A stretch of DNA of 60,461 nt, from positions 1-60,461 of the forward strand of contig CAZYWO010000001.1 of assembly GCA_964651095.1 (NCBI GenBank). The letters are read 5' to 3'. Positions 5,366 to 56,029 of the stretch are shown in pieces; within the stretch, counting starts at the first letter, position 1; each line of letters begins with the position of its first letter. The DNA is from an uncultured Oscillospiraceae bacterium. GTDB taxonomy: Bacteria; Bacillota; Clostridia; Peptostreptococcales; Anaerovoracaceae. The position numbers and the translations under genes were made by a program. A model generated the notes under the pieces. The model was not told where the DNA came from. It ran no database searches and saw nothing but the letters and a program-made list of their open reading frames with translations.

Positions 5366-6973
5366 TCAGTTAAATATATTGTTTGTCTGTACTCCACCAT
5401 ACATCTGCCTGCGGGGCGGAGACTTCTTGTACTTATCCCATATGCCCCATACCTGAATTTCAATTTTATCGGTATTTTCCGGCCTGTCATTATCCGTTTT
5501 CTCACGGAGGGCACGGTTAAATTCCTTGTCTCCAAGACCGAGAATTTTGTTGAATTCCGTTTTACTCAAATCGGGGGCATTCATAATGGCGGGGTAAGAA
5601 TCACTGAGAACAAGCATATAAGGCCGGGCTATTCTTCCAACCTCATCCGGTGTTAAAAGGTCCCGTGCGATGAGCTGCATACTTGCGCTTGAATTTGCCG
5701 GCGCTATAAGCCCCGTAGATGCACTTGCACTGAGACTTTGTGATGAACAGGTATATTTTCCGCACCGAGCTGAAATTTGTTTATGTGTTTCTTCATCAGA
5801 AGAAAGATAAATCCATATCACACAGTTTGTAAACACTGTCTGAGCTGTATTTTTTCCATAGGTTTCTTCCACTTGGCTCATTGACTGAATAAACAGATTG
5901 AAACGTATGCCACGGCCTCCGCCAACGGTCAGCTTAGACGCAAATGAGGGGATCTTTGTAAAGTTGCCGAACTCATCGAGAATGAAGTTGCAGCGTATTT
6001 TAAGCCTGCCGCCACGCTTGTCTGCCACTTCTACAAGCTTACAGTAAAGACTGTCTACAAACATTGATGCTATGCTGTAATATGTCTCTTTTTCATCCGG
6101 CAGAATAATAAAAAGTGCCGTTTTCTTTTCAGGAATATCTGAAAAAGAAAAGTCGCTGCTTGAGGTTATATTGTAGATGTAACTGTCCACAAACAGTCTT
6201 AGTGATGCCAAAGCTGATGCGTAAAAGCTGCCTCGTGTTTTGGAGGGAGCAACCATTGCGGCCGCAAGCAGACTTTTTGCCGGGTGATTGTAGTCGATTT
6301 CTGTCAGGTATTCGTCCAGTGGCATTTTATCGCCTATTTTACACATTTCAGCAATAAAAAGGTAAACATTTGTAAGATTTTGAAACTGAGGCTTTTCCTT
6401 GTTATCATAAACCACAGCCATAATGGTTGATGCCAAAACAGCTTTTTCGCCCTCCGTCCATATCTTTTCCCCGGTATGCTCCTTTACATTACCGCTGAGA
6501 CTTTCCGCCATGTCCAACGCCAGTTTCTGGGCCTTGGATAAATCATCGTTGTTGACCTCATTTATGATTTCCTGAAGCAGGTTATAGCGTTTGCTTTTCT
6601 TTGGGCTGCGAAAATCCATATCAATAACGTTATACCCCTGTTTTTTAAGATAATTAGAGGTATAAGCAAAAAGCTCGCCCTTGGGGTCGGATATTATCAT
6701 GCTTTCTCCGGACATTGCTAAGGTGCAAATGGACGGAAGTACAACGCTGCGTGATTTGCCGCTGCGAGTGGCGCCGATACAAAGGGTATGTATATCATCA
6801 TTTACAAAATATGTTTTGGTACCGTTATGTCCGGGCTCCATTCCAACCACAATTCCGCCGCCGTTAGAAAACGGTGATTTCTGTTGTTTCTTCGAGTTTA
6901 TCAATGACTGACTGATATTCTTCACGTCCTTTCTCTGCTTTTTCTTCATCTGTTCCTTTAGCCTTTTGAGCAA
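5366..6973 (-). CDS. virD4: VirD4/TraG-family type IV coupling protein, soluble ATPase part (no TM anchor)
   Basis: Walker A is IGATRSGKSRS and Walker B is CNFILDEFGNF. No hydrophobic N-terminus. The track start is TTG at 6973. A likelier start is ATG at 6949 (SD-like AAAGGAAC) or ATG at 6841. The 5' end overlaps the preceding ORF. Confidence 0.85.
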   Translation of the reverse strand: MLKRLKEQMKKKQRKDVKNISQSLINSKKQQKSPFSNGGGIVVGMEPGHNGTKTYFVNDDIHTLCIGATRSGKSRSVVLPSICTLAMSGESMIISDPKGELFAYTSNYLKKQGYNVIDMDFRSPKKSKRYNLLQEIINEVNNDDLSKAQKLALDMAESLSGNVKEHTGEKIWTEGEKAVLASTIMAVVYDNKEKPQFQNLTNVYLFIAEMCKIGDKMPLDEYLTEIDYNHPAKSLLAAAMVAPSKTRGSFYASALASLRLFVDSYIYNITSSSDFSFSDIPEKKTALFIILPDEKETYYSIASMFVDSLYCKLVEVADKRGGRLKIRCNFILDEFGNFTKIPSFASKLTVGGGRGIRFNLFIQSMSQVEETYGKNTAQTVFTNCVIWIYLSSDEETHKQISARCGKYTCSSQSLSASASTGLIAPANSSASMQLIARDLLTPDEVGRIARPYMLVLSDSYPAIMNAPDLSKTEFNKILGLGDKEFNRALREKTDNDRPENTDKIEIQVWGIWDKYKKSPPRRQMYGGVQTNNIFN

Positions 6974-38237: not shown

Positions 38238-39650
38238 CTATATCCCTCCCTTTTCCTTAATCCATTCGGGGGAAGCATACTTTGCCACCCTCGACAGAGG
38301 AGCCCCGTTCTCAAGCATACGCTCGGCTATTTTGTCCGAAACATACCCCACCTGAGCATGTGTTCCCTTTATTTTCCCATCGGGACCTATACCGCTTAAG
38401 CGGAAGCGGAAAATATCCTTACATATAAAATCGTCGTTATTATAAGACAAGCCTTCCACAATGCTCAGATACTTTCTGCTGCTGTCAATCATTTTTTTCT
38501 TGTATACCACAATAGGAAACGCATCAACAATATTTTTAGCAAGACGTGTTTCAGAACTGATATGGCCGGACTGCTCGCACATGGAAAGAATACGGGCATA
38601 GGCATCTGCCGCAGAGTTAGCGTGAAGGGTTGTGGCTACGGTGTGCCCTGTTCTTGCCGCTTCCTGTGCGTCCAGTGCTTCGCTGCCTCTCATCTCTGCC
38701 GGAACAATTATGTGAGGGTGATATCTGAGGGAGGCTTTTACAAGCCTTTGACTGTCTATTTTTGCTGAAGGGTTGGTAGTCCAGTTTACAACACGGTTGT
38801 ATATGCGCCCGTCCTCATTCCTTTTTGTGAGGCGCAGCTCACGCACACCTTCCTCGATTGTTACAATACGGTAGTAGTCCGGGCAAAGGTTTAAGAATAC
38901 ATTCAAATCCGTAGTTTTGCCTGACGAAGTGCCTCCGGCAAAGGCTACAGAGATTCCGCTTGTTAAGCACAGATAGATAAAATCCATTTCCTCTTTGGTA
39001 CATGTTCCAAAAGATATCATATCTTCGGCAGAAAATTTATCTTCCCTTTGCTTTCGTATCGAGGCCGATGCTCCCGCCTCTTTATCGTTTACAGGGCTTA
39101 TTGTTGCGGATATTCTGACGCCCTGAGACATATAGCTGTCCTGCACAGGCTCACTGCCGTCCAAAACAAGCCCGCCCAGAGCGACCATCTTTTTTACCGT
39201 ATCCATACATTGGGTTGGGCTGAGGAATGTATCGCCGACCTTTTCCACCTCGCCGCCGGCATATTCGACTTCAACATCGTCAAACGCATTTATATTGATT
39301 TCCTCAACATTCGGATCAAAAAGGTACTGAGTCAAAAAGCCGAAGCCCGCCATATCCTCATAGAGCTTCCCGCAGAGCTGAGAATTGTCCTCTATTTCGG
39401 AACAAAGCAAATTCAGCTTTATAACATAAGAGGATATAAGGCGCTTCAAGACTTCGGCGCTGTCCTTAGACGTTATCACGCTGCTTAATTCATCGGCGTG
39501 TTTTTTGCTTATAACTTCCCTTATTGTATTAAGGATTTCACCGTATGGCTTCGGTATTATTTTTTCTTTACCGTTTCGTATGGTTTTATCGTCGGTTTCT
39601 CCTTTGCGCTGCTCCATTTCGTAGGCAGCCTCAAAAATATCAATCGCCAC
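38238..39650 (-). CDS. CpaF/TadA-family secretion ATPase
   Basis: 470 aa. Walker A is AGGTSSGKTT. Also IVPAEMRGSEA and GHTVATTLHANSA. Its length and the lack of a PilB-type N-domain or Cys box fit CpaF. Confidence 0.85.
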   Translation of the reverse strand: MAIDIFEAAYEMEQRKGETDDKTIRNGKEKIIPKPYGEILNTIREVISKKHADELSSVITSKDSAEVLKRLISSYVIKLNLLCSEIEDNSQLCGKLYEDMAGFGFLTQYLFDPNVEEININAFDDVEVEYAGGEVEKVGDTFLSPTQCMDTVKKMVALGGLVLDGSEPVQDSYMSQGVRISATISPVNDKEAGASASIRKQREDKFSAEDMISFGTCTKEEMDFIYLCLTSGISVAFAGGTSSGKTTDLNVFLNLCPDYYRIVTIEEGVRELRLTKRNEDGRIYNRVVNWTTNPSAKIDSQRLVKASLRYHPHIIVPAEMRGSEALDAQEAARTGHTVATTLHANSAADAYARILSMCEQSGHISSETRLAKNIVDAFPIVVYKKKMIDSSRKYLSIVEGLSYNNDDFICKDIFRFRLSGIGPDGKIKGTHAQVGYVSDKIAERMLENGAPLSRVAKYASPEWIKEKGGI

Positions 39651-46248: not shown

Positions 46249-49200
46249 TTATACCTCCATTTCTAAGTCCTCAGCGGCATCTTGAGCCGCACAGACTTCT
46301 TCAATTAGTTTTTTAAACAGTCCGGGCAAATCCTGTTCCGAAAGCCCTCCCAGATTTGTTTCAATGCGATCGTCCAATAGGCTGTAACGAATTTCTTCAG
46401 AATCAACGAAGTATTCCAAAATATGTATCTCATTTGTTTCTTTGAGAAATTCAAAAGAAAAACAAGGCTCCTTTCCATAGAAATCACCTTGTCTCTCATA
46501 ATGGGCTATGCTGAATATGCTGCCGCCCATGCTTTCAAGCATAAATTTTCCCATCTCTATGTAGGGCGTACCTTCAACAATGGGCGAAAATAATTCTTGT
46601 ACGGTTTCATAAAAAGCTTTTTCCTCCGGATTTTCGGCATCCAGATTAAGTTTGGTATCTATTTCCGCAAGTCTTATTTCCATAGCCTCCAGTTCATCTT
46701 TGTGCTCCCATTCTTTTGTTAAAAGCTCCTTTGCGGCGGCTATATCACTTTCCGTTTCTGATATCTTTTCATTATGCTTTACAATTACATTTTCAAAATC
46801 GTTTAACACATTATCCATTCTTGTAATATTGCCTATGGGGGAGCTGCCAAGCTCTGTTTTGTGAGCTTGCTTTCCCAAAAGAATCATAGCATATGAATAC
46901 TCACCGAAAAAAAGGGAAGGCTCAATTTTTAAGGAGAAGCCACGATAGCTGCCTATGTGTGTGCTTGAATTGTACTTCCGGCACAGCTCAATAATAGCTT
47001 TGCCGGCCTTTTCCTTATTCCTATACACAATTCCTTCGAGGGTTATTTCAAAATCAGGTTTTGTTTCGGCATTGCGGGTTTTTATATCAGCTTCATAATC
47101 TTCAATATATTTTTTATGATACTCTATTTTTTTGGGATACCCGATTTTCAGATTTTGGGCAATTGCTGATTTTTGCAAAACAAACCCATTCTTGAGAAGT
47201 TTCAGCCGCTGGATTTCCGTTTCGAGCTCCATCTTTTCCTTAATGAGCGGATTGCCCGTGGCAAGAGCTTTGATCTCCGCATAGGACAGCACAGTCTCGT
47301 CAACGTCGGAAGCTGACCTTGCAGGCACTTTTCCCGTCATAATCTGAGAAATAAATTTCTGTTTATTTTCAATTATCTGATAGAGATACGCATCGAAGGT
47401 GCCTTCCGTAACATAACGGTGTATGTATACCTTCTTATTTCTGTTTCCCTGACGGATAACCCTTCCTGCCCGCTGCTCCAAATCCCGTGGCCGCCACGGA
47501 CAATCTAAATCGTGGATGGCAATAAGCCTTTCCTGAACGTTGGTTCCGGCTCCCATCTTTTGGGTGCTGCCAATTAATACACGCACCTCTCCGCTGCGCA
47601 CTTTGGCAAACAATTCTTCCTTTGCTGCCTTTGTTTTTGCGCTGTGGATATACGCTATTTCTTCCGGCGGTATTCCCATTTTTATAAGCTTTTCCTTAAG
47701 GTCATCGTAAACGTTGAAATTACTTTTATCCGGAGTTGAAATATCACAGAACACAAGCTGCGTAAGACGTTCGTCCATGCCGTCGCTCCAGTGATTAAAA
47801 ACTCTTTGCGCACACAAATTCACCTTGCTTTGAGAATCATCGGGGGCGAGAGGATTTATCAGCCTTTGGTCAAGGGCCAGCTTCCGCCCATCGTTAGTGA
47901 CCAGAAGCATATTATCTTCTATGGAAATGTCCCCGTCACGGGTAAATTTCATAGGATCTCCCTTTCGTATTCTGTCAGCCCGCATACCGAACGATTTAAC
48001 TATCTTTTTCTGAAGGTCGGAGGGCTTTGATATTTCGGTAATAAACTCAGCTTCGGGAACAGGAAGATTGAGCATGTCGGCAGTCTGAATATCTGCAACC
48101 TCTTTGAACATAGTCATAAGCTCCGGCAGATTATTAAACTTTGCAAAACGTGTTCTGAAACGCTGTCCCGTACCTTCTGGGTTAAGCTCCATAGCCGTGA
48201 CGGTTTCGCCGAAGGTTGAAGCCCAATCGTCAAAATTTATCAGCCCTGATTCGTTCAGAACATCATATTGAAGGTATCGCTGTATGGTATAAAGCTCCGT
48301 CATGGAATTACTTATGGGAGTTCCGGTGGCAAAGATAACACCCCTGCCGCCAGTAATCTCATCGAGATATCGGCACTTCATGAAAAGGTCATTGGATTTC
48401 TGCGCTTCGGTCTGAGCTATGCCGGCGATATTACGCATTTTTGTATACAGATACAAGTTTTTAAATTCATCGCTTTCATCGACAAAAATCCGATCAATGC
48501 CCAATTCTTCAAACTTTATCACATCATCCTTAGTGCCGGTTTCCGTAAGTTTTTTAAGCTTTTCGGTGAGCCTCTTTTTTGTGAGCTCCAACTGCTTCAC
48601 AGACCATCTGTCGGCACTGTTACTGTTGGTTATGGCCTCAGTTATGTCAAAAATCTGCCGTTCCAAATGCTTTTCCTGATATTCCTGAGACATAGGTATC
48701 TTTTCAAATTGACTGTGACCGATAATAACTGCGTCATAATTGTTTGCCGCAATACGTCCGCAGAATTTTTTTCGGGCGGATTTTTCAAAATCCTTTTCCG
48801 TAACGGCAAGTATGTTTGCAGACGGATACAGTCTGAGGAAATCCTTTGCCCACTGGTCCACGATATGATTCGGAACAACAAAAAGAGATTTACTGCATAA
48901 CCCCAGACGTTTGCTTTCCATTGCCGCCGCAATCATTGTAAAGGTCTTTCCTGCGCCCACCGAATGGGCTATCAGTGTATTTCCACCGTAAATCACACGT
49001 GCGGCAGCCACAAGCTGATTGGGGCGGAGGGCTATTTCCGAGTTAATGCCCGAAAGTATCAGATTGCTCCCATCATATTCACGGCTTCGGATTGAATTGA
49101 ATTTTTCATTGTATATATCCTCTAACCGTTTCCTCCTATCGGGGTTCATCCATATCCATTCCTCAAATTTATTTCGTATGTCCCGCTGCTTTTGCTGGGT

Positions 49201-52200
49201 GAGTATTGTGGCCTCGTGGTTTATTACCCGTTTTTCTTTCCCGTTTTCAGTTATGGTTTTATATATTTTTACGTCTTTAAGATTGAGGGTATCTTCAATT
49301 ATTTCAAGAGCATTTTTGTAATTTGTACCGTAAGTTTTATCTGTGTGGACATTGGAAATTATACTCTTACCGTTGACATTCCAATTCCCGGACTCTTTGC
49401 TGTACTGAGCATAGATTTTGTCCTCCTGCCAAAAAGAAGGCTTTGCTATCTCACGGCAAAATTCTGTAATAATATCAGTCGGCACCCAAGTAGAACCCAA
49501 GCGGACGATTATATCTTCGGCGGTAAGCCTTTCCGGCTGAACAGCCTCCAATGCCGATACGTTTATGCTGTATTCTTCGGAATACAGCTCTGCGGCTTTG
49601 CTGGCAAATTCAAGCTTTTCACGTACATTCCCCGAAAGATACTCGCTGCGGACAAGATATTTATTCCCATTAGCCCCTAAGCCGGTTTTGGGATTTAAGA
49701 ATATTTCGCCCTTGAGCTCACTGTACAATTCCGTTTCTGATTTTCCTGTAAGAGCTGACATATAATCCATATCAACCCGTGCCTTTTCCGCATAGGACAA
49801 CGCCAATGCCTCCGAAGCTGTATCAACATGGGTAACAACAGTTTTCGGTCTTATTGTGCGCTCGTTAAAAATCTGTCCCTTTCCGGCAAAGTTTCCCTTG
49901 CTGTCAAAATTCTCTATTGATGCTATAAGGTAATATCCGTCGTCTCTTGAAAAAGCACGTTTATTGATTTTGTCATTTATACGACCAAACCTGTCAGCAA
50001 AGCGGTCATATGTATTATTAAGCTTTTCTTGCAGCTCTTGTACAACTTCATCGCTTTCACCCTCAAGCTGGGCTGCAATGACGCTGCGCACAATGTCACG
50101 CACTTCAATCATTCCCTTTACCCGTTCTTCTGAACTTTTGGGAATGTCGGCAGGATACATTTTGTCGGTTTCCTTGTAATAGATTTTTTCATTGTAAATG
50201 GTATAGGAATAGTTTCTTGCATCCGGATCGGCGGGAATGGGGTTGTTATCTTGCTCGTCAATATCCTCGCCAATTTCGGCTTCTATATATGTTCCGTGTA
50301 TATTTTTTATAGCTTCTTTCAGCTGTTCCTCAAGGGTTACGCCCTCATAAGGAACGACTGTAAAATCATCTTTACCGTACTGAGTGCTTTTTGATGTCTG
50401 ATGTCCAAGTATCATATCCGGATTGTTGATAAAGTAGCTGTTTATGGAAAAACCATCTTTATTTACTCCAAGATGTAACCAATCGGGTTCAATCTCAATC
50501 GGGCTTTCACGCTTCTGCAAAAAGATAATATCCGATACAACGCTTGTACCAGCATTTGCTTTAAATGCTGTATTCGGAAGCCGTATCGCTCCCAAAAGCT
50601 CCGCTCTTTTTGCAAAATACTGTCTTGCTTCGGGCGATTGCTTATCCATAGTATATCGGCTTGTTACAAAGGCAATCACGCCGCCGGGACGAACCTGATC
50701 TATCGCTTTTGCGATAAAATAGTCGTGTATGGGAAAACCGAGCTTGTTATATGCCTTGTCACTTACCTGATACTGTCCGAACGGCACGTTGCCGACTGCC
50801 AAATCGTAAAAATCCCGTCTGTCTGTCGTTTCAAAGCCCGCAACGGTTATATCCGCTTTCGGATAGAGCTGTTTTGCGATTTTACCCGTTATACTGTCAA
50901 GCTCAACTCCGTACAGGTTACTCTGCGACATACTTTCGGGGAGCATACCGAAAAAGTTTCCTACACCCATTGACGGCTCAAGGATATTGCCCTTACTAAA
51001 GCCCATATTTTCAATAGTCTTGTACATAGCCTTGATTATGGTGGGTGGGGTGTAGTGGGCGTCGAGGGTGGAAGCTCTGGCTTGCTCGTATTCTTCAACG
51101 GTAAGCAGCTCTTTCAATTCGGTATATTCCTTCGACCAATTTTCTTTTGATGAATCAAACGCTTCAGGGAGGCCGCCCCAGCCCACGTAACGGGAGAGTA
51201 TTTCCTGTTCTTCGGGAGTGGCAAAACGGTTTTCGCTCTCGCACTGCTTTAGAACACTGATTGCCTCCATATTCATTCTGAACTTTTCCTTTTGCCCGCC
51301 ATAGCCCAACTCGTCATTTGTTATGCGGAAGTTGCGCCGTTCAGAGGTGAGTGTGTCGGTGGAGATGGTATTAACCACTATATCATAGGGCAGATTGTTT
51401 TCTTCCGCATGATATATGGCAGTTGTTTTCTCAGTAAAAGGCTTACTGTCGTGTTTCTGCAAGTCCACAACTCGTTTAAGCCATTCAACGCTTTCGCTTC
51501 GGAATATGGGAAAGCCCGTACCGTTTTGGAAGGTAATGTCTTTAAGCACTGCGTCTTCGCCGCTTATACTGTCAACAACATATTTTCTGTCGCCAATCAT
51601 CAGCTCTTTCCCGATAATATCGGGGGTTTCAGAATAATTAAGCTCCACATCTTCGCCGTTTATTTCCTTAATTTCCCGTTTCTTAACATAGCCTTGTGAG
51701 CGGATATTTGAAAACCACTGCCCGGCAAATGTATTTAATTCTTTGACCGTGGTACTGCCGTTTTCTACTGATTGGTAAACGGCCAATCCGTCCTGACGGT
51801 ATGTTTGGGGAGTAAGTGCCATATTTTCTTTATCAATGATAAATTCCATATCGGGATCATACATTACATCGCCGTTTTGAACATAGAAATGTGATACTGA
51901 TATTCTGTCCTCCGAAAGCCTTTCAATCGTAAGGGGCATAAACGATTCACCCGCCTCAAAGCGGATATACCTTGTTTCCCCGCTTATGATTTCCGGGGCA
52001 AGATCCGACAGAAAATAGTAGTTTCTTTCTTCCGCCGTTTTTCGGTTTGAAGTGCGTTCGGTTCCTGCAAAGGTTTTTTCAACATTTTTCATCATATCCG
52101 TATATGCGGATTTAAAAACATTGTCATACAGTCTTTGCCGAAAATCCATATTATCTGAAAACAAAACGTGGAAGCTCTCATGTTCTTCATCCGTGGGCAG

Positions 52201-55200
52201 CTTAGCTGCCGCACGGTTAACGGCGTTTTCACACTCCCTGCGGATAAGGCCGGTATCACTGCTTTCGGTTGATTGAAGATATTCACTATCACGCAAAACC
52301 GCACTTACGAAGTTGGTGGTATATACCCTTAAAATGTCCGTTTCCGTCTGTATAAACGAAGGATATTTTTCTTCCATGAAGTCCGCAAGCCGTCGAAGGT
52401 TTTCTCCTTTGATATCTCCGTCATCCGACAGCAGAGCAAGATCTGCTTTTTCATTCAGCAATCGTTCGGAAGAATGTTCAAATTCAAGAGTACCGTAATC
52501 GTAAAGCGTTGTTCGGCCCAAGGTATACAGTTGTTCAAGAAACCTTTCATCGCCATTCTCTCCAGACTTTGCCTTAAAGGCTTCTCTTATGTCGTAGGGA
52601 TAAAGCACCGTTTCGACAATCTGGCCTTTTGAGTCGTTACCGTCAGGATTATAATATGTCCACACAATACTTTCGTTTTCGGAATTGTAGATGAATTTGT
52701 TAATGCCTAAAATGAAATGTTTCCGCAGTTCCTGTTCATGAAGTAGCGGATATGTTTCGTCCACAACCTCTGTGTGTAGCTGGATACGAAACTCAGGTAC
52801 ATCGGAATACAGTCGTATAAGCTCTACATCGCCCGAATTGAGAACCGCACGGCGCACAGCAGCATTGCCCTCAATCACGGCATTTTCTCGGTCAGCGTTC
52901 AGACAGGCGTTTCGGTAAAGCATATCGTCCGTTACTGCTGCAATGACTGTCGGTTTATGCTTTGCAAGTGAGGTTTCAATATGTGTAAATGACGGCTCCG
53001 TTTCATATGCATCGATATTGCGTTCTGCCTCACGGTCAACGGACAGCAAAGTATAAATGCCACGCTTGCCCGTATTAGAATCTATTGCGGAAATGGTCAC
53101 ATCATACTTATCCCTGAGTTTTTCGATATTGGCTTCAAGAGTAAAGGCGGGAATACCGCAAAAATCCACCTTGCCGATATTTTTAATCTCTCTTTGTGCG
53201 AGGTGTATATCCAATACATCGGCTGCGATTTTTGCATCTTCGCCGTACATTTCAAAAAAATCTCCGACTTGGAACAGCACTATATCCGATGAATGAGCTT
53301 CTTTTATGGCGGCGTATTCGCTGCGTACATCATTGCTGCCGCTTATTTGTGGTATTTCCTGCTCTGTCTTATGTCGGGAAACATGCTCAAGTTCCTTCGG
53401 GTTTAAATATTTCCCATTTATGATAAGGCTGTTTATACGCCGTTCCGCCTGCTCCCACTTTATGAGAGTTTTTGCGTAGGGTGCGGAAATACCATCGTGG
53501 CCGTACTCAATTCCCTTTCCATCGTGCTTTTCGTAAAATTTTCCGTTATAGCTTCCGCCCATGCCATACTCATCTTTAAGAAACTTTATCCTTTTCGCTT
53601 TATCGGAGTTACCGTCAAAAAAGCGGTATATTCGGTATTTGCTTTCTGAAATATTACTGCCCCGGCTTAATATATTATTTATCTCGTCCTCGGAAATAAA
53701 TCTCTCCGGCGAAGTACGGCTCAGGCTTTCGGCGGTATATTCCTTTCTCGGCAGATACAAATCCCCGATGGCGGCGTCAGCTTCTGGCGGATTGTGAAAC
53801 CGTGAACGCATAATATCGGAGTTTTCGCTGTACAGCTCACAGAGTTTTTCAGTTATACGCTTGGTTTCGTCAAGCCCTTCGGCGGTTTGCAGATGCGCCG
53901 CAATTCTCGCCGTCTCCTTGGGGAAACCTTCTCGGCTCCCAAAAACCTCGGCTTCAAAAAGCGTATTTAATTCGGGATAAACCTCATAATTCAAATCCTG
54001 CTTCATATACCAAAAGGTTTCCGCCGTTTTTTGATACTCGTAGTCTTTCATTTGAAGAAGCACGTCCTTCGGAGCATACCTCCCCAAATCCAGTAAAGCA
54101 TCAATTCGCTCTGAGGCGGCTTCCCATGAAAGCAGCGTTGCTCTTTCTGCCTGTGCCGAGCCGCCAAAGGCAATACGGATTCCGGCCTCGTCCCACCAAG
54201 CGGAAACCTTTACTCCGTCAAGGATAAAGCCCTTGCCGTCAGTGTCGTACAGCTTTTGCAGAAATGCGGCCTTTTCTTCCATGGGTTTGTTTTTACTGAA
54301 CTCAATGCAGATTTCAAGCACGCTGTTTTCCTCATTGGTGCCGTCACAGAGCACCTCGTCAATAACTTGCTGGGGAACAGAAAAAGCGAAGCTCGTCTGC
54401 TCCGCCTCTCCGATATGTTCCTGATACTCTGCCGCAGGCACTGTATCAAGAAAGCTTAACTGTACACTATCTCCCGAAGTACCACTTCCTCCGCCGAATG
54501 CTTGTAGTTGTTCATCAGCCCCGCCCATTTCAGGGGATTGCGCTGCTTCAGTGCTTCGTCCGTCCCGTCCTGTTCGGCCATTCTCTGAATTATCTGCTCC
54601 TCCGTCTGTTCTGCTGTTTCGCTCACTGTTGCCAGATGCTCCGAAAGCTTCCCGTTCCGCAGCAGATCCATCAGTTCCGTCTTTTTGTTCTCCATTAAGT
54701 GTTCCATGCACAGTTTCCCGTACCGGCCTATGGGCTTCCCCGTCTGAAGATACATAGCTTCCAGATTGGGGATATACATTCCGTTCGCTTCCTTGTAAAC
54801 CATTTCCATATACATTCTCCTTTTCTTTACGTTTTACGGTCTTTTCAACCGTTCTTAATATGTTTTGTGCAACGCTGCTGACCTTGCTTCCAAATCCGCT
54901 CAATTCCTCCGGGTCGGAGGGAACGGTAAGCCCGTCTGTAACGATGATGTTATCAGGAGACAATTCCATTCGGCTCAGCAGCATATATATTACCGACGCT
55001 TCCGCTGACGAAAGATACTTCTGGCTCAAATCCGGCATTTCTTTCCTTACTGCATTATGTGCAGAACAGATAACCGCATCAACTATTGTAGTATTTACTT
55101 TTAATCCCCCAAATGAATTTTCAAGTTCTTCAATAACAGCATCTTCGGTTTCCATACGAAACTGCCAGAGCCTTATGTCCTGTCCCTGCCTTCTGTATGT

Positions 55201-55491
55201 GTCGGAAACATCATAAACATACTCTAACTTAAAGCTGTCGCCGACGTCTCTGAGCAAAGCTATTCCCTTCGAGCCCTTATGTATACCTCTTTTCAGGGTG
55301 TCTGTCCAAACCTTAAAAGATGCGCAGGCAGACGCATCGGGCCGCTGAGCATAAATCATAAGCTGATCCATGAATGAATACTTATAGTTCGCTGCTGCGG
55401 TCTTTAAAAATTCTGCCCATTTAGTTCCTCCGCTGCTTACAGACTTAAGCGCATCCTCATAAAGTGCAGCCATCGCCAATATTTTTTTCAA
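46249..55491 (-). CDS. Polyvalent 3080-aa protein: ArdC-N-like ssDNA-binding, MutS-domain-I-like, N6-adenine DNA methyltransferase, SNF2 helicase
   Basis: Uninterrupted 9.2-kb ORF. ArdC-N-like: YSFMDQLMIYAQRPDASACASFKVWTDTLKRGIHKGSKGIALL (about 55100-55430). MutS-I-like: VLFQVGDFFEMYGEDA (53080-53322). MTase motif I EPSMGVGNFFG and motif IV VGNVPFG (about 50400-51200). SNF2 motifs AHSVGAGKTF, FVDESDEFKN and QRAGRVIRQGN (about 47350-49100). Confidence 0.85.
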   Translation of the reverse strand: MKKILAMAALYEDALKSVSSGGTKWAEFLKTAAANYKYSFMDQLMIYAQRPDASACASFKVWTDTLKRGIHKGSKGIALLRDVGDSFKLEYVYDVSDTYRRQGQDIRLWQFRMETEDAVIEELENSFGGLKVNTTIVDAVICSAHNAVRKEMPDLSQKYLSSAEASVIYMLLSRMELSPDNIIVTDGLTVPSDPEELSGFGSKVSSVAQNILRTVEKTVKRKEKENVYGNGLQGSERNVYPQSGSYVSSDGEAHRPVRETVHGTLNGEQKDGTDGSAAEREAFGASGNSERNSRTDGGADNSENGRTGRDGRSTEAAQSPEMGGADEQLQAFGGGSGTSGDSVQLSFLDTVPAAEYQEHIGEAEQTSFAFSVPQQVIDEVLCDGTNEENSVLEICIEFSKNKPMEEKAAFLQKLYDTDGKGFILDGVKVSAWWDEAGIRIAFGGSAQAERATLLSWEAASERIDALLDLGRYAPKDVLLQMKDYEYQKTAETFWYMKQDLNYEVYPELNTLFEAEVFGSREGFPKETARIAAHLQTAEGLDETKRITEKLCELYSENSDIMRSRFHNPPEADAAIGDLYLPRKEYTAESLSRTSPERFISEDEINNILSRGSNISESKYRIYRFFDGNSDKAKRIKFLKDEYGMGGSYNGKFYEKHDGKGIEYGHDGISAPYAKTLIKWEQAERRINSLIINGKYLNPKELEHVSRHKTEQEIPQISGSNDVRSEYAAIKEAHSSDIVLFQVGDFFEMYGEDAKIAADVLDIHLAQREIKNIGKVDFCGIPAFTLEANIEKLRDKYDVTISAIDSNTGKRGIYTLLSVDREAERNIDAYETEPSFTHIETSLAKHKPTVIAAVTDDMLYRNACLNADRENAVIEGNAAVRRAVLNSGDVELIRLYSDVPEFRIQLHTEVVDETYPLLHEQELRKHFILGINKFIYNSENESIVWTYYNPDGNDSKGQIVETVLYPYDIREAFKAKSGENGDERFLEQLYTLGRTTLYDYGTLEFEHSSERLLNEKADLALLSDDGDIKGENLRRLADFMEEKYPSFIQTETDILRVYTTNFVSAVLRDSEYLQSTESSDTGLIRRECENAVNRAAAKLPTDEEHESFHVLFSDNMDFRQRLYDNVFKSAYTDMMKNVEKTFAGTERTSNRKTAEERNYYFLSDLAPEIISGETRYIRFEAGESFMPLTIERLSEDRISVSHFYVQNGDVMYDPDMEFIIDKENMALTPQTYRQDGLAVYQSVENGSTTVKELNTFAGQWFSNIRSQGYVKKREIKEINGEDVELNYSETPDIIGKELMIGDRKYVVDSISGEDAVLKDITFQNGTGFPIFRSESVEWLKRVVDLQKHDSKPFTEKTTAIYHAEENNLPYDIVVNTISTDTLTSERRNFRITNDELGYGGQKEKFRMNMEAISVLKQCESENRFATPEEQEILSRYVGWGGLPEAFDSSKENWSKEYTELKELLTVEEYEQARASTLDAHYTPPTIIKAMYKTIENMGFSKGNILEPSMGVGNFFGMLPESMSQSNLYGVELDSITGKIAKQLYPKADITVAGFETTDRRDFYDLAVGNVPFGQYQVSDKAYNKLGFPIHDYFIAKAIDQVRPGGVIAFVTSRYTMDKQSPEARQYFAKRAELLGAIRLPNTAFKANAGTSVVSDIIFLQKRESPIEIEPDWLHLGVNKDGFSINSYFINNPDMILGHQTSKSTQYGKDDFTVVPYEGVTLEEQLKEAIKNIHGTYIEAEIGEDIDEQDNNPIPADPDARNYSYTIYNEKIYYKETDKMYPADIPKSSEERVKGMIEVRDIVRSVIAAQLEGESDEVVQELQEKLNNTYDRFADRFGRINDKINKRAFSRDDGYYLIASIENFDSKGNFAGKGQIFNERTIRPKTVVTHVDTASEALALSYAEKARVDMDYMSALTGKSETELYSELKGEIFLNPKTGLGANGNKYLVRSEYLSGNVREKLEFASKAAELYSEEYSINVSALEAVQPERLTAEDIIVRLGSTWVPTDIITEFCREIAKPSFWQEDKIYAQYSKESGNWNVNGKSIISNVHTDKTYGTNYKNALEIIEDTLNLKDVKIYKTITENGKEKRVINHEATILTQQKQRDIRNKFEEWIWMNPDRRKRLEDIYNEKFNSIRSREYDGSNLILSGINSEIALRPNQLVAAARVIYGGNTLIAHSVGAGKTFTMIAAAMESKRLGLCSKSLFVVPNHIVDQWAKDFLRLYPSANILAVTEKDFEKSARKKFCGRIAANNYDAVIIGHSQFEKIPMSQEYQEKHLERQIFDITEAITNSNSADRWSVKQLELTKKRLTEKLKKLTETGTKDDVIKFEELGIDRIFVDESDEFKNLYLYTKMRNIAGIAQTEAQKSNDLFMKCRYLDEITGGRGVIFATGTPISNSMTELYTIQRYLQYDVLNESGLINFDDWASTFGETVTAMELNPEGTGQRFRTRFAKFNNLPELMTMFKEVADIQTADMLNLPVPEAEFITEISKPSDLQKKIVKSFGMRADRIRKGDPMKFTRDGDISIEDNMLLVTNDGRKLALDQRLINPLAPDDSQSKVNLCAQRVFNHWSDGMDERLTQLVFCDISTPDKSNFNVYDDLKEKLIKMGIPPEEIAYIHSAKTKAAKEELFAKVRSGEVRVLIGSTQKMGAGTNVQERLIAIHDLDCPWRPRDLEQRAGRVIRQGNRNKKVYIHRYVTEGTFDAYLYQIIENKQKFISQIMTGKVPARSASDVDETVLSYAEIKALATGNPLIKEKMELETEIQRLKLLKNGFVLQKSAIAQNLKIGYPKKIEYHKKYIEDYEADIKTRNAETKPDFEITLEGIVYRNKEKAGKAIIELCRKYNSSTHIGSYRGFSLKIEPSLFFGEYSYAMILLGKQAHKTELGSSPIGNITRMDNVLNDFENVIVKHNEKISETESDIAAAKELLTKEWEHKDELEAMEIRLAEIDTKLNLDAENPEEKAFYETVQELFSPIVEGTPYIEMGKFMLESMGGSIFSIAHYERQGDFYGKEPCFSFEFLKETNEIHILEYFVDSEEIRYSLLDDRIETNLGGLSEQDLPGLFKKLIEEVCAAQDAAEDLEMEV
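54456..54815 (-). CDS. tnpV: TnpV-family protein encoded out of frame inside the 3080-aa ORF
   Basis: 119 aa. YKEANGMYIPNLE...IGRYGKLCMEHLMENKK...LLRNGKLSEHLATVSETAEQ...GTDEALKQRNPLKWAGLMNNYKHSAEEVVLREIVYS follows the recalled TnpV (PF14198) pattern throughout. SD AAAGGAGA at 54823-54816, with ATG codons at 54815, 54809 and 54803. The frame is offset by 1 relative to the giant ORF. Confidence 0.7.
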   Translation of the reverse strand: MYMEMVYKEANGMYIPNLEAMYLQTGKPIGRYGKLCMEHLMENKKTELMDLLRNGKLSEHLATVSETAEQTEEQIIQRMAEQDGTDEALKQRNPLKWAGLMNNYKHSAEEVVLREIVYS

Positions 55492-55552
55492 AACTTTTAC
55501 CTCCCTAAGTTTTATCGCCCCCTCGTGATGTCTGTATTCTTATTTGTTAGAT

Positions 55553-56029
55553 TCATGGCGTTACCGCCTTACTCCACCGGGTTTTCATTTCATGTGGATA
55601 TTGATTTTTATCCTGAGGGCAACTTCGACCGTTCCATTCAATCCCTCCGGCCCTGCCCTCGCACAACCAGCCTGCCGCTTTTAGGCTAACGCCGGTTTCG
55701 CTTTCTAAAATATATGTAATGATTTTGGAATATCCCATAGCACGGGCAGCACGCCATGCCGCCGCATATAAAATGCTACATGCGTTTTTTGTTCCATCGG
55801 TGCAAAGGCGATTGACCTCTAAGGTCATGCCATCGTCAAGATACCTACTCACAGGTCTGCCGCATATGCACACACCCACGAGCCTCCCGTTCTCGCATAC
55901 ACCTATTGAAAACTTATGGCCTCGGCTGGGCTTATGATGGCGGTGGTACTTTGATACAAAATTGTTTGCCTGCCTAAGTGTTATCGGCACTAAACTCAGC
56001 ATGGTGTTGTCTCCAGCCCTAAAAGCCAA
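55553..56029 (-). CDS. GNAT-fold protein (XF1762-like)
   Basis: 158-aa ORF. ANNFVSKYHRHHKPSRGHKFSIGV...GVCICGRPVSR...EVNRLCTDGTKNACSILY resembles the small acetyltransferase-like family found on mobile elements. The likely start is at the internal Met (MLSLVPI). Confidence 0.5.
   Translation of the reverse strand: MAFRAGDNTMLSLVPITLRQANNFVSKYHRHHKPSRGHKFSIGVCENGRLVGVCICGRPVSRYLDDGMTLEVNRLCTDGTKNACSILYAAAWRAARAMGYSKIITYILESETGVSLKAAGWLCEGRAGGIEWNGRSCPQDKNQYPHEMKTRWSKAVTP

Follow-up and report, generated by a model that had tools for sequence, protein, structure and literature searches.

The DNA analysed here (the window) is a stretch of 60,461 nucleotides (nt) from an uncultured Oscillospiraceae bacterium (GenBank assembly GCA_964651095.1, contig CAZYWO010000001.1, positions 1 to 60,461), and it is a conjugative element. 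On its minus strand lies a giant open reading frame (ORF) of 3080 codons (46249-55491) that encodes a polyvalent protein. Within this ORF, on the same strand, is a complete second gene, tnpV (54456-54815, minus), of 119 codons from its first ATG to a TAA stop at 54458-54456. The frame of TnpV is offset by +1 nt from that of the giant ORF, the inner ORF is wholly contained in the outer one, and the overlap takes up giant codons 226-346. As judged from sequence comparison, the two very probably form a conserved, same-strand and fully nested gene pair that gives two proteins from one mRNA, with the older tnpV being read through as a tether of the giant protein.

The listed start of the giant ORF is a TTG at 55491. 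In alignment, the MA(S/T)KLQ with which homologues begin falls on the ATG at 55473, six codons past the TTG, and this ATG is probably the start. The N-terminal domain (54816-55491, minus, residues 1-225) is conserved in all homologues. A preliminary description of the region had called it ArdC-N-like, a label that has behind it only a sub-threshold match of residues 24-80 to PF08401 (ArdcN; E 0.01; 16.4 bits, cut-off 22.6), and the domain is therefore referred to here as possibly ArdC-N-like. It is followed by an acidic, Gly/Ser/Arg-rich linker of low complexity (54454-54816, minus, codons 226-346), which is made of the same nucleotides as tnpV, and then by a conserved region (53332-54453, minus, residues 347-720) that starts with (Q)LS(L)F right after the tnpV stop and matches no Pfam family. 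Further downstream, Pfam identified MutS_I (residues 724-806), DUF6908 (1173-1269), a weakly matching Eco57I-like methylase (1553-1632) and SNF2/ResIII/Helicase_C (2153-2682). The 3080-aa product, a protein of a conjugative element, thus unites several unrelated effector and DNA-binding domains, as polyvalent proteins do.

The 119-aa inner ORF matches PF14198 (TnpV) over profile positions 2-111 of 111 (E 5.3e-29, 100.9 bits against a cut-off of 27). This bears out the preliminary description, which had proposed a TnpV-family gene out of frame within the linker, had suggested PF14198 as its test, and had reported both frames to be open on one strand; the strand, left unstated there, is the minus strand. 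The ORF also matches the uncharacterised phrog_24764 (E 1.8e-22), and no NCBIfam model matches it. Searching with a profile of nested TnpV copies recovered at least 7949 PF14198 clusters. The ribosome-binding site claimed for the gene was likewise found: a Shine-Dalgarno (SD) sequence, AAGGAG, was read at 54817-54822 (minus), inside the giant ORF. The second ATG, at 54809, is the probable start, giving a protein of 117 aa, since its spacing of 7-8 nt from the SD matches that of the homologues. A promoter and terminator scan of 54300-55700 returned nothing above shuffled expectation.

The two frames are coupled by a simple codon rule. A stop arises in the giant (host) frame only where a TnpV codon ending in T precedes a codon starting with AA, AG or GA. 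The tnpV gene of the window has 38 such stop-creating contexts, none of them with T, and T ends 14 of its 80 other codons; in the rest of the giant gene, 29% of the codons end in T. When TnpV was recoded with the codon usage of the giant gene, the host frame was open in 0 of 20000 trials (mean 8.7 stops), and when synonymous codons were shuffled within tnpV, the probability of an open host frame was P = 0.002.

Searches with the nucleotide sequence of the region gave next to nothing in collections of phages and plasmids. At the protein level, homologues of giant residues 1-720 cover 95-99% of the query at 29-45% identity, and their linkers look alike. One genome per species was then scanned with an alignment of giant homologues; 581 of 600 candidate stretches were confirmed and 80 loci were fetched, from Lachnospiraceae, Oscillospiraceae, Christensenellales, Monoglobus and others. 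In all 80, as in the window, a single ORF without stops spans the N-terminal and post-linker domains. TnpV was present in frame +1 and at full length in 81/81 loci (phmmer E 1e-13 to 1e-30), and AAGG[AG] stands upstream of an ATG at the homologous position in all 81, with a spacing of 9 nt in 74. The inner gene thus appears to have its own translation start signals throughout. The third frame contains 8-22 stops in every locus.

As a control, 82 loci were chosen by TnpV alone, from a scan of viral contigs and two plasmid records. They form two discrete classes, 32 nested and 50 stand-alone. None of the 32 nested copies has a stop in the host frame; the giant N-terminal and/or post-linker domain is in the same ORF wherever the contig reaches, with the N-terminal domain 262-290 codons upstream. 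In the 50 stand-alone copies that frame is broken by 1-15 stops, and neither giant domain is near any of them. An arrangement of three genes, with an N-domain gene, tnpV and a downstream gene in succession, was found at none of the 82 loci. Taken together, the host frame is open in 113/113 nested loci (the window, 80 from the genome scan and 32 TnpV-centred), where the inner gene is 114-120 codons long.

The codon rule seen in the window holds in both samples. Among the nested copies of the genome scan (79 distinct sequences), 0 of 2909 stop-creating contexts have a T-ending codon, compared with 10.6% of codons elsewhere; in the TnpV-centred sample the figures for these contexts are 0/1021 in nested copies versus 16.8% (n=1337) in stand-alone copies. 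T-ending codons make up 10.6-12.6% elsewhere in the nested copies, and the combined nested samples have 0/3930 in stop-creating contexts.

Could the giant ORF be illusory, with three genes following one another and a host frame open by chance, by composition or through an assembly indel? The annotation table of NZ_OY725736, which lists a 'TnpV protein' and omits the surrounding 2184-aa ORF, would fit such an arrangement, as would a low-complexity linker without detectable protein homologues. We consider it exceedingly improbable. Chance and composition fail for the window alone, given the outcome of the 20000 recodings, and the host frame that is closed by 1-15 stops in stand-alone copies is open in every flanked nested locus, with no T in any of the 3930 contexts. 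An indel in this assembly is no explanation for a pattern that recurs in independently assembled genomes of many species. The region downstream of tnpV has no conserved start or SD of its own. Its conserved motif, (Q)LS(L)F..EQ..AFS..Q..ID.VL, begins immediately at the tnpV stop; in the 40 codons after that stop, only 12 of 108 distinct loci have a start codon accompanied by an SD-like sequence, at scattered positions, and in the window the next Met of the giant frame is residue 404, 58 codons past the overlap. Therefore, the downstream 2700 residues would be reached by reading tnpV through in frame 0. The preliminary description had already argued for read-through and had named host-frame stops in orthologues, or an assembly error, as what would overturn it; neither was encountered.

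Selection was examined in a codon alignment of the 79 nested genes. In the TnpV frame, substitutions per site follow the order position 3 > position 1 > position 2 at every divergence level (0.118, 0.046 and 0.034, respectively, at 90-95% nucleotide identity). At 80-90% nucleotide identity, amino-acid identity is 0.83 in the TnpV frame, 0.64 in the host frame and 0.66 in the third frame. As the host frame is no better conserved than the stop-ridden third frame, the linker is not itself conserved in amino-acid sequence, and the most conserved codon position of the host frame is its third. A phmmer search with the 121-residue host-frame linker against 1.84 billion protein representatives found only the protein of the window itself; such a search shows non-conservation and is of no use as a census of nested cases. 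The seemingly invariant residues of the linker are shadows of TnpV residues: for example, ..A-D-E-Q.. of the giant protein is read from ..L-M-N-N.. of TnpV (CTG ATG AAC AAC as (G)CT GAT GAA CAA).

The host frame nevertheless leaves its own mark. Position 3 divergence in TnpV is 40-65% of that in the flanking domains of the same pairs, a suppression that exceeds what stop avoidance alone would remove. Hydrophobic and aromatic residues make up 10.8% of the host frame in nested genes versus 20.3% of the same frame in stand-alone genes, Cys falls to 0.0% versus 2.5%, and Asp plus Glu is doubled; the composition is thus shifted toward disorder-promoting residues. Both frames therefore carry signs of selection, the inner a purifying pattern, the outer stop avoidance, the shift in composition and the suppressed synonymous rate. 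On these sequence statistics, selection at the amino-acid level acts on the TnpV frame, with the host frame constrained only to stay open and hydrophilic, and the nesting has apparently been kept by selection in more than 110 related elements of many gut Clostridia. The anatomy of the locus, its conservation and these signatures are direct observations.

A TnpV frame that is only a fossil, a swallowed tnpV no longer expressed in a gene of which only the giant protein matters, would leave a different record. It is true that gene finders usually call the giant ORF only and that the nested TnpV, and indeed both products, are known from sequence alone, which also weighs against our reading of two proteins. 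But the TnpV frame bears the mark of purifying selection across lineages whose giant proteins are only ~30% identical; it is intact and full-length in every locus, with SD and ATG conserved; and the host frame is most conserved at its third position, whereas a frame that coded alone would show the opposite. We regard a fossil as extremely unlikely.

The preliminary description had also noted that the overlap looks different in base composition. Its hand count of 68/120 G+C at 54541-54660 is exact, as is the count of 9 CTG among the 13 Leu codons of the TnpV frame; its two reference counts were off by one each, 26/60 rather than 27/60 at 54841-54900 and 21/60 rather than 20/60 at 48421-48480. 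The G+C content is 50.3% in tnpV versus 43.9% in the whole giant gene, with a strong A>T skew on the coding strand across tnpV. Both the modest G+C rise and the skew follow from the avoidance of T-ending codons that keeps the host frame open, and a foreign origin is not needed to explain them.

This bears on the idea that a mobile tnpV cassette was captured recently, repeatedly and independently into a tolerant linker, of which the composition would be the foreign trace. Besides the local G+C of 50% against 44%, it could draw on the presence of tnpV in many unrelated mobile elements and on a neighbour-joining (NJ) tree that mixes some nested and stand-alone copies. However, tnpV always lies 262-290 codons from the ORF start, its phase is +1 in 81/81 loci and the flanking motifs are the same. 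Moreover, TnpV and the N-terminal domain diverge in step: their pairwise identities are correlated (Spearman 0.89; means 0.58 and 0.60) and no pair is discordant, which argues that the nesting is old and inherited with the gene rather than repeatedly re-acquired. Repeated capture is thus highly improbable, and a compositionally foreign cassette finds no support. Of the three explanations first offered, those of true overlapping genes and of a linker that originated as the alternative frame of tnpV are favoured in combination, given that the linker lacks conservation of its own and tnpV is widespread as a stand-alone gene.

For the direction of events, the sequences most likely point to tnpV as the older gene, with the linker frame overprinted later so as to fuse the flanking coding regions. 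Overprinting on a pre-existing tnpV is suggested because tnpV is widespread elsewhere, standing alone beside serine recombinases, coupling proteins and relaxases, and because the linker has no sequence identity of its own.

Another possibility is programmed +1 frameshifting, in which the SD-like element would make ribosomes slip from the giant frame into the TnpV frame, yielding a fusion of the N-terminal domain with TnpV besides or instead of free TnpV. SD-stimulated +1 shifting is known in prfB, which the set-up at tnpV resembles in its frame, offset by +1 from that of the giant ORF, and in the strong SD-like sequence close upstream. One locus (L163:87-2206, protein P0059) does encode such a fusion in frame, of 402 aa. 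In this single metagenomic contig, an A/C-rich run immediately ahead of the tnpV SD has a 1-nt indel, through which the N-terminal domain continues in the TnpV frame; from nt 872 onward the host frame remains open. As a singleton with a 1-nt indel and an open host frame it is probably a mutation or an assembly error, and we rejected it both as an alternative architecture and as a frameshift product. Frameshifting would not need the ATG that is kept 7-9 nt from the SD in 81/81 loci, and the 9 nt after the SD-like element vary, with no shared slippery or hungry-codon site visible, although no dedicated search was made. It is accordingly very unlikely.

Several points weigh against the reading of a conserved nested pair. 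In the NJ tree of the short TnpV protein, nested and stand-alone copies are not cleanly parted, so that a single origin is not established; with six changes between the nested and stand-alone states and 125 of 130 nearest neighbours sharing their state, it is too noisy to be conclusive. The 80 genome loci were chosen by tblastn score with a query spanning the linker, which biases them toward intact frames, and the TnpV-centred sample removes this bias only partly. A locus from IMG/VR (UViG_3300045988_162558; L125:2808-6347) has a nested tnpV, an open host frame and the post-linker domain downstream, and is without the N-terminal domain; no ATG, GTG or TTG occurs in its host frame upstream of tnpV, and divergent phage lysis genes lie just upstream. 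At two further nested loci (L096 and L108) the ORF ends about 100 codons past tnpV, and these may be decaying. Lastly, an AlphaFold2 model of the TnpV family (39 sequences, database homologues; predicted local distance difference test score (pLDDT) 84.4, predicted template modelling score (pTM) 0.72), with an N-terminal beta-hairpin followed by helices, gave no Foldseek match with E < 6 in the PDB and nothing significant in BFVD.

A shorter version of the giant gene was also found (L164:4001-7234, P0102). It encodes 1077 aa with the N-terminal domain, the linker with an intact nested TnpV, and MutS_I, and is represented by many near-identical proteins. The presence of the N-terminal domain, linker and nested TnpV ruled out that proteins of this type start after tnpV in a three-gene arrangement. 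They are encoded on contigs of up to 595 kb among chromosomal-looking genes (HSP20, SpoU methylase, ABC transporter) and may be domesticated or stranded copies.

Based on the sequences, we infer the translation of both products, initiation within the giant mRNA, the direction of overprinting and any function of TnpV. In the proposed scheme, ribosomes from the giant start would translate the N-terminal domain first and then, reading the tnpV nucleotides in frame 0, a disordered tether of ~120 residues that is acidic and Gly/Ser/Arg-rich. The same ribosomes would continue without reinitiation into the remaining ~2700 residues with MutS_I, DUF6908, the methylase-like and the SNF2-helicase regions. 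Other ribosomes would start in frame +1 at the internal SD (GGAG, 54820-54817) and the ATG at 54809, and make the 117-aa helical TnpV, ending at the TAA at 54458-54456. The host frame would be kept open by synonymous choice in TnpV, with no NNT before codons starting with AA, AG or GA and a preference for codons ending in G or C, a choice that would raise the local G+C and roughly halve the synonymous rate.

More tentatively, and with somewhat less than an even chance of being right, the locus may exemplify an undescribed route, 'bridge overprinting', by which two flanking genes are joined via the other frame of a middle gene; the middle gene stays intact and the bridge becomes a disordered tether. 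TnpV may at the same time be a dedicated partner of the giant protein (an adaptor, a chaperone or a regulator of transfer or excision), whose dosage is tied to the giant mRNA by the nesting.

TnpV of elements of the Tn4451/Tn4453 type was postulated to be an accessory factor of excision, by analogy with lambda Xis (PMC3158075), and TnpV was also postulated to take part in transfer (PMC12084326). A lambda Xis-like excisionase was considered here: neither the winged-helix fold nor sequence similarity of the Xis type was found by Foldseek or by a search of the TnpV sequence profile against PDB sequences, which returned nothing below E 0.4. The Xis analogy is thus unsupported here, as structure and sequence searches gave no significant relative. 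Among 37 genes directly upstream of stand-alone tnpV, 14 encode a large serine recombinase like TnpX, 5 a coupling protein and 2 a Mob protein of the Mob_Pre type, and downstream neighbours vary. This context hints at a role linked to recombination or transfer and agrees with that in Tn4451-type elements and in integrative and mobilizable elements (IMEs) of the MOBQ type (PMC3158075, PMC12084326). In the donor, TnpV may be made as an accessory factor for recombination or transfer of the element.

Two other features of the family were noted. Two proteins of 207 aa (P0130 and P0131) score ~312-315 bits on the TnpV profile, ~1.6x the ~190 bits of single-domain matches, which suggests that they are tandem double TnpV proteins. 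In the window, the TnpV frame continues open for 79-81 codons past its stop (54210-54449); this continuation has a median of 12 codons in the 81 loci, is not conserved and was dismissed as chance.

The other genes of the window listed here are all on the minus strand as well. They encode a tyrosine integrase, ParA/ParB, DUF3848/3849 proteins, a Mom-like protein, a Toprim/DUF3991 protein, a relaxase, type-IV-pilus-like ATPases and platform proteins, VirD4 and a VirB4-like ATPase. The relaxase, VirD4, VirB4-like ATPase, ParA/ParB and integrase place tnpV within a mobile genetic element. Two T2SSE ATPases, a T2SSF platform protein and a PilN-like protein (21147-26773 and 38238-39650, minus) stand beside the VirD4, VirB4-like ATPase and relaxase genes. 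Directly upstream of the giant gene, at 55553-56029 (minus), is a gene for a Mom-family protein (PF25680, E 3e-8), likely another DNA-modification or anti-restriction function.

In prokaryotes, long overlaps between genes of the same direction are generally put down to faulty annotation, and according to a passage in a preprint (bioRxiv 10.1101/724807), overlaps >60 bp are essentially non-existent in prokaryotes apart from few instances. The present case is a complete nesting of ~350 nt with unusually strong comparative support, from more than 110 loci, stand-alone controls, a codon rule and a bimodal split of the loci. As far as sequence comparison can tell, a rare long same-strand overlapping gene pair in bacteria is strongly supported. 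It offers a natural system for the study of frame sharing, in which the older frame would dictate the sequence and the newer one would be a tolerant disordered linker. It also cautions that apparent linker motifs of these polyvalent proteins (e.g. ..DEQ..) are shadows of TnpV residues (..MN..).

The nesting also poses a systematic annotation problem. Metagenomic gene callers list the giant protein instead of TnpV. In Monoglobus pectinilyticus (NZ_OY725736.1; L081:5334-11888), the table, which omits pseudogenes, lists a 'TnpV protein' at 5992-6345 and not the enclosing ORF of 2184 codons. As pipelines seem to keep either TnpV or the giant gene, one partner is missing in the records of elements that are common in human-gut Clostridia. 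Recognition of the pair connects the TnpV family, so far uncharacterised, with the machinery by which conjugative elements counter restriction and establish themselves, and so gives a handle on the function of TnpV. The papers found by full-text search treat TnpV/PF14198 only as a separate gene of unknown or postulated function, and nothing relevant on nested or overlapping genes in conjugative elements was found in the literature searched, with subscription journals outside its coverage.

Among known systems, Rz/Rz1 of phage lambda is a close parallel: the small gene is contained entirely in the larger one, in the +1 frame of that strand, and is served by a ribosome-binding site of its own. 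The tnpV gene is likewise nested on the same strand, in +1 and with its own start signals. Rz1, however, is the younger, overprinted partner within a gene for a globular protein, whereas here the inner tnpV appears to be the older, conserved gene and the outer frame is a poorly conserved disordered linker. The products of Rz and Rz1 form one complex, whereas a functional link between TnpV and the giant protein is putative. In Bacillus subtilis, the short comS gene lies out of frame inside the very large multidomain srfA, with which it is co-transcribed, much as tnpV is embedded in a very large multidomain gene. The difference is one of size and spread: comS has 46 codons and a narrow lineage, whereas tnpV has 114-120 codons, belongs to a large Pfam family and is nested across many families of Clostridia. 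Overprinting in small viruses (phiX174 A/B, D/E and K; PMC8227390) is similar in its long same-strand dual coding with one frame conserved, the other frame biased or disordered, and synonymous variation suppressed. Those cases are usually laid to limits of genome size and create a new protein; here the element exceeds 60 kb and the novel frame would be a linker that fuses its flanks.

The tnpV genes of Tn4451/Tn4453-type elements and MOBQ IMEs belong to the same PF14198 family and likewise to mobile elements of Firmicutes, but they are separate genes, and the frame that nested copies keep open is interrupted in stand-alone ones by 1-15 stops. The outer gene, in turn, resembles the polyvalent proteins described by Iyer et al. 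2017 (PMC5512222) in being giant and multidomain, with a possibly ArdC-N-like N-terminus, MutS-I, methylase and SNF2 helicase regions and a type IV secretion system context. That paper contains no mention of TnpV, overlapping frames or linkers, and a nested gene is not part of the architecture it describes. Taken together, the kind of arrangement is already known from Rz/Rz1, comS/srfA and viral overprinting, while the use of an old gene's other frame as the tether of a polyvalent protein, in hundreds of species, appears to be new.

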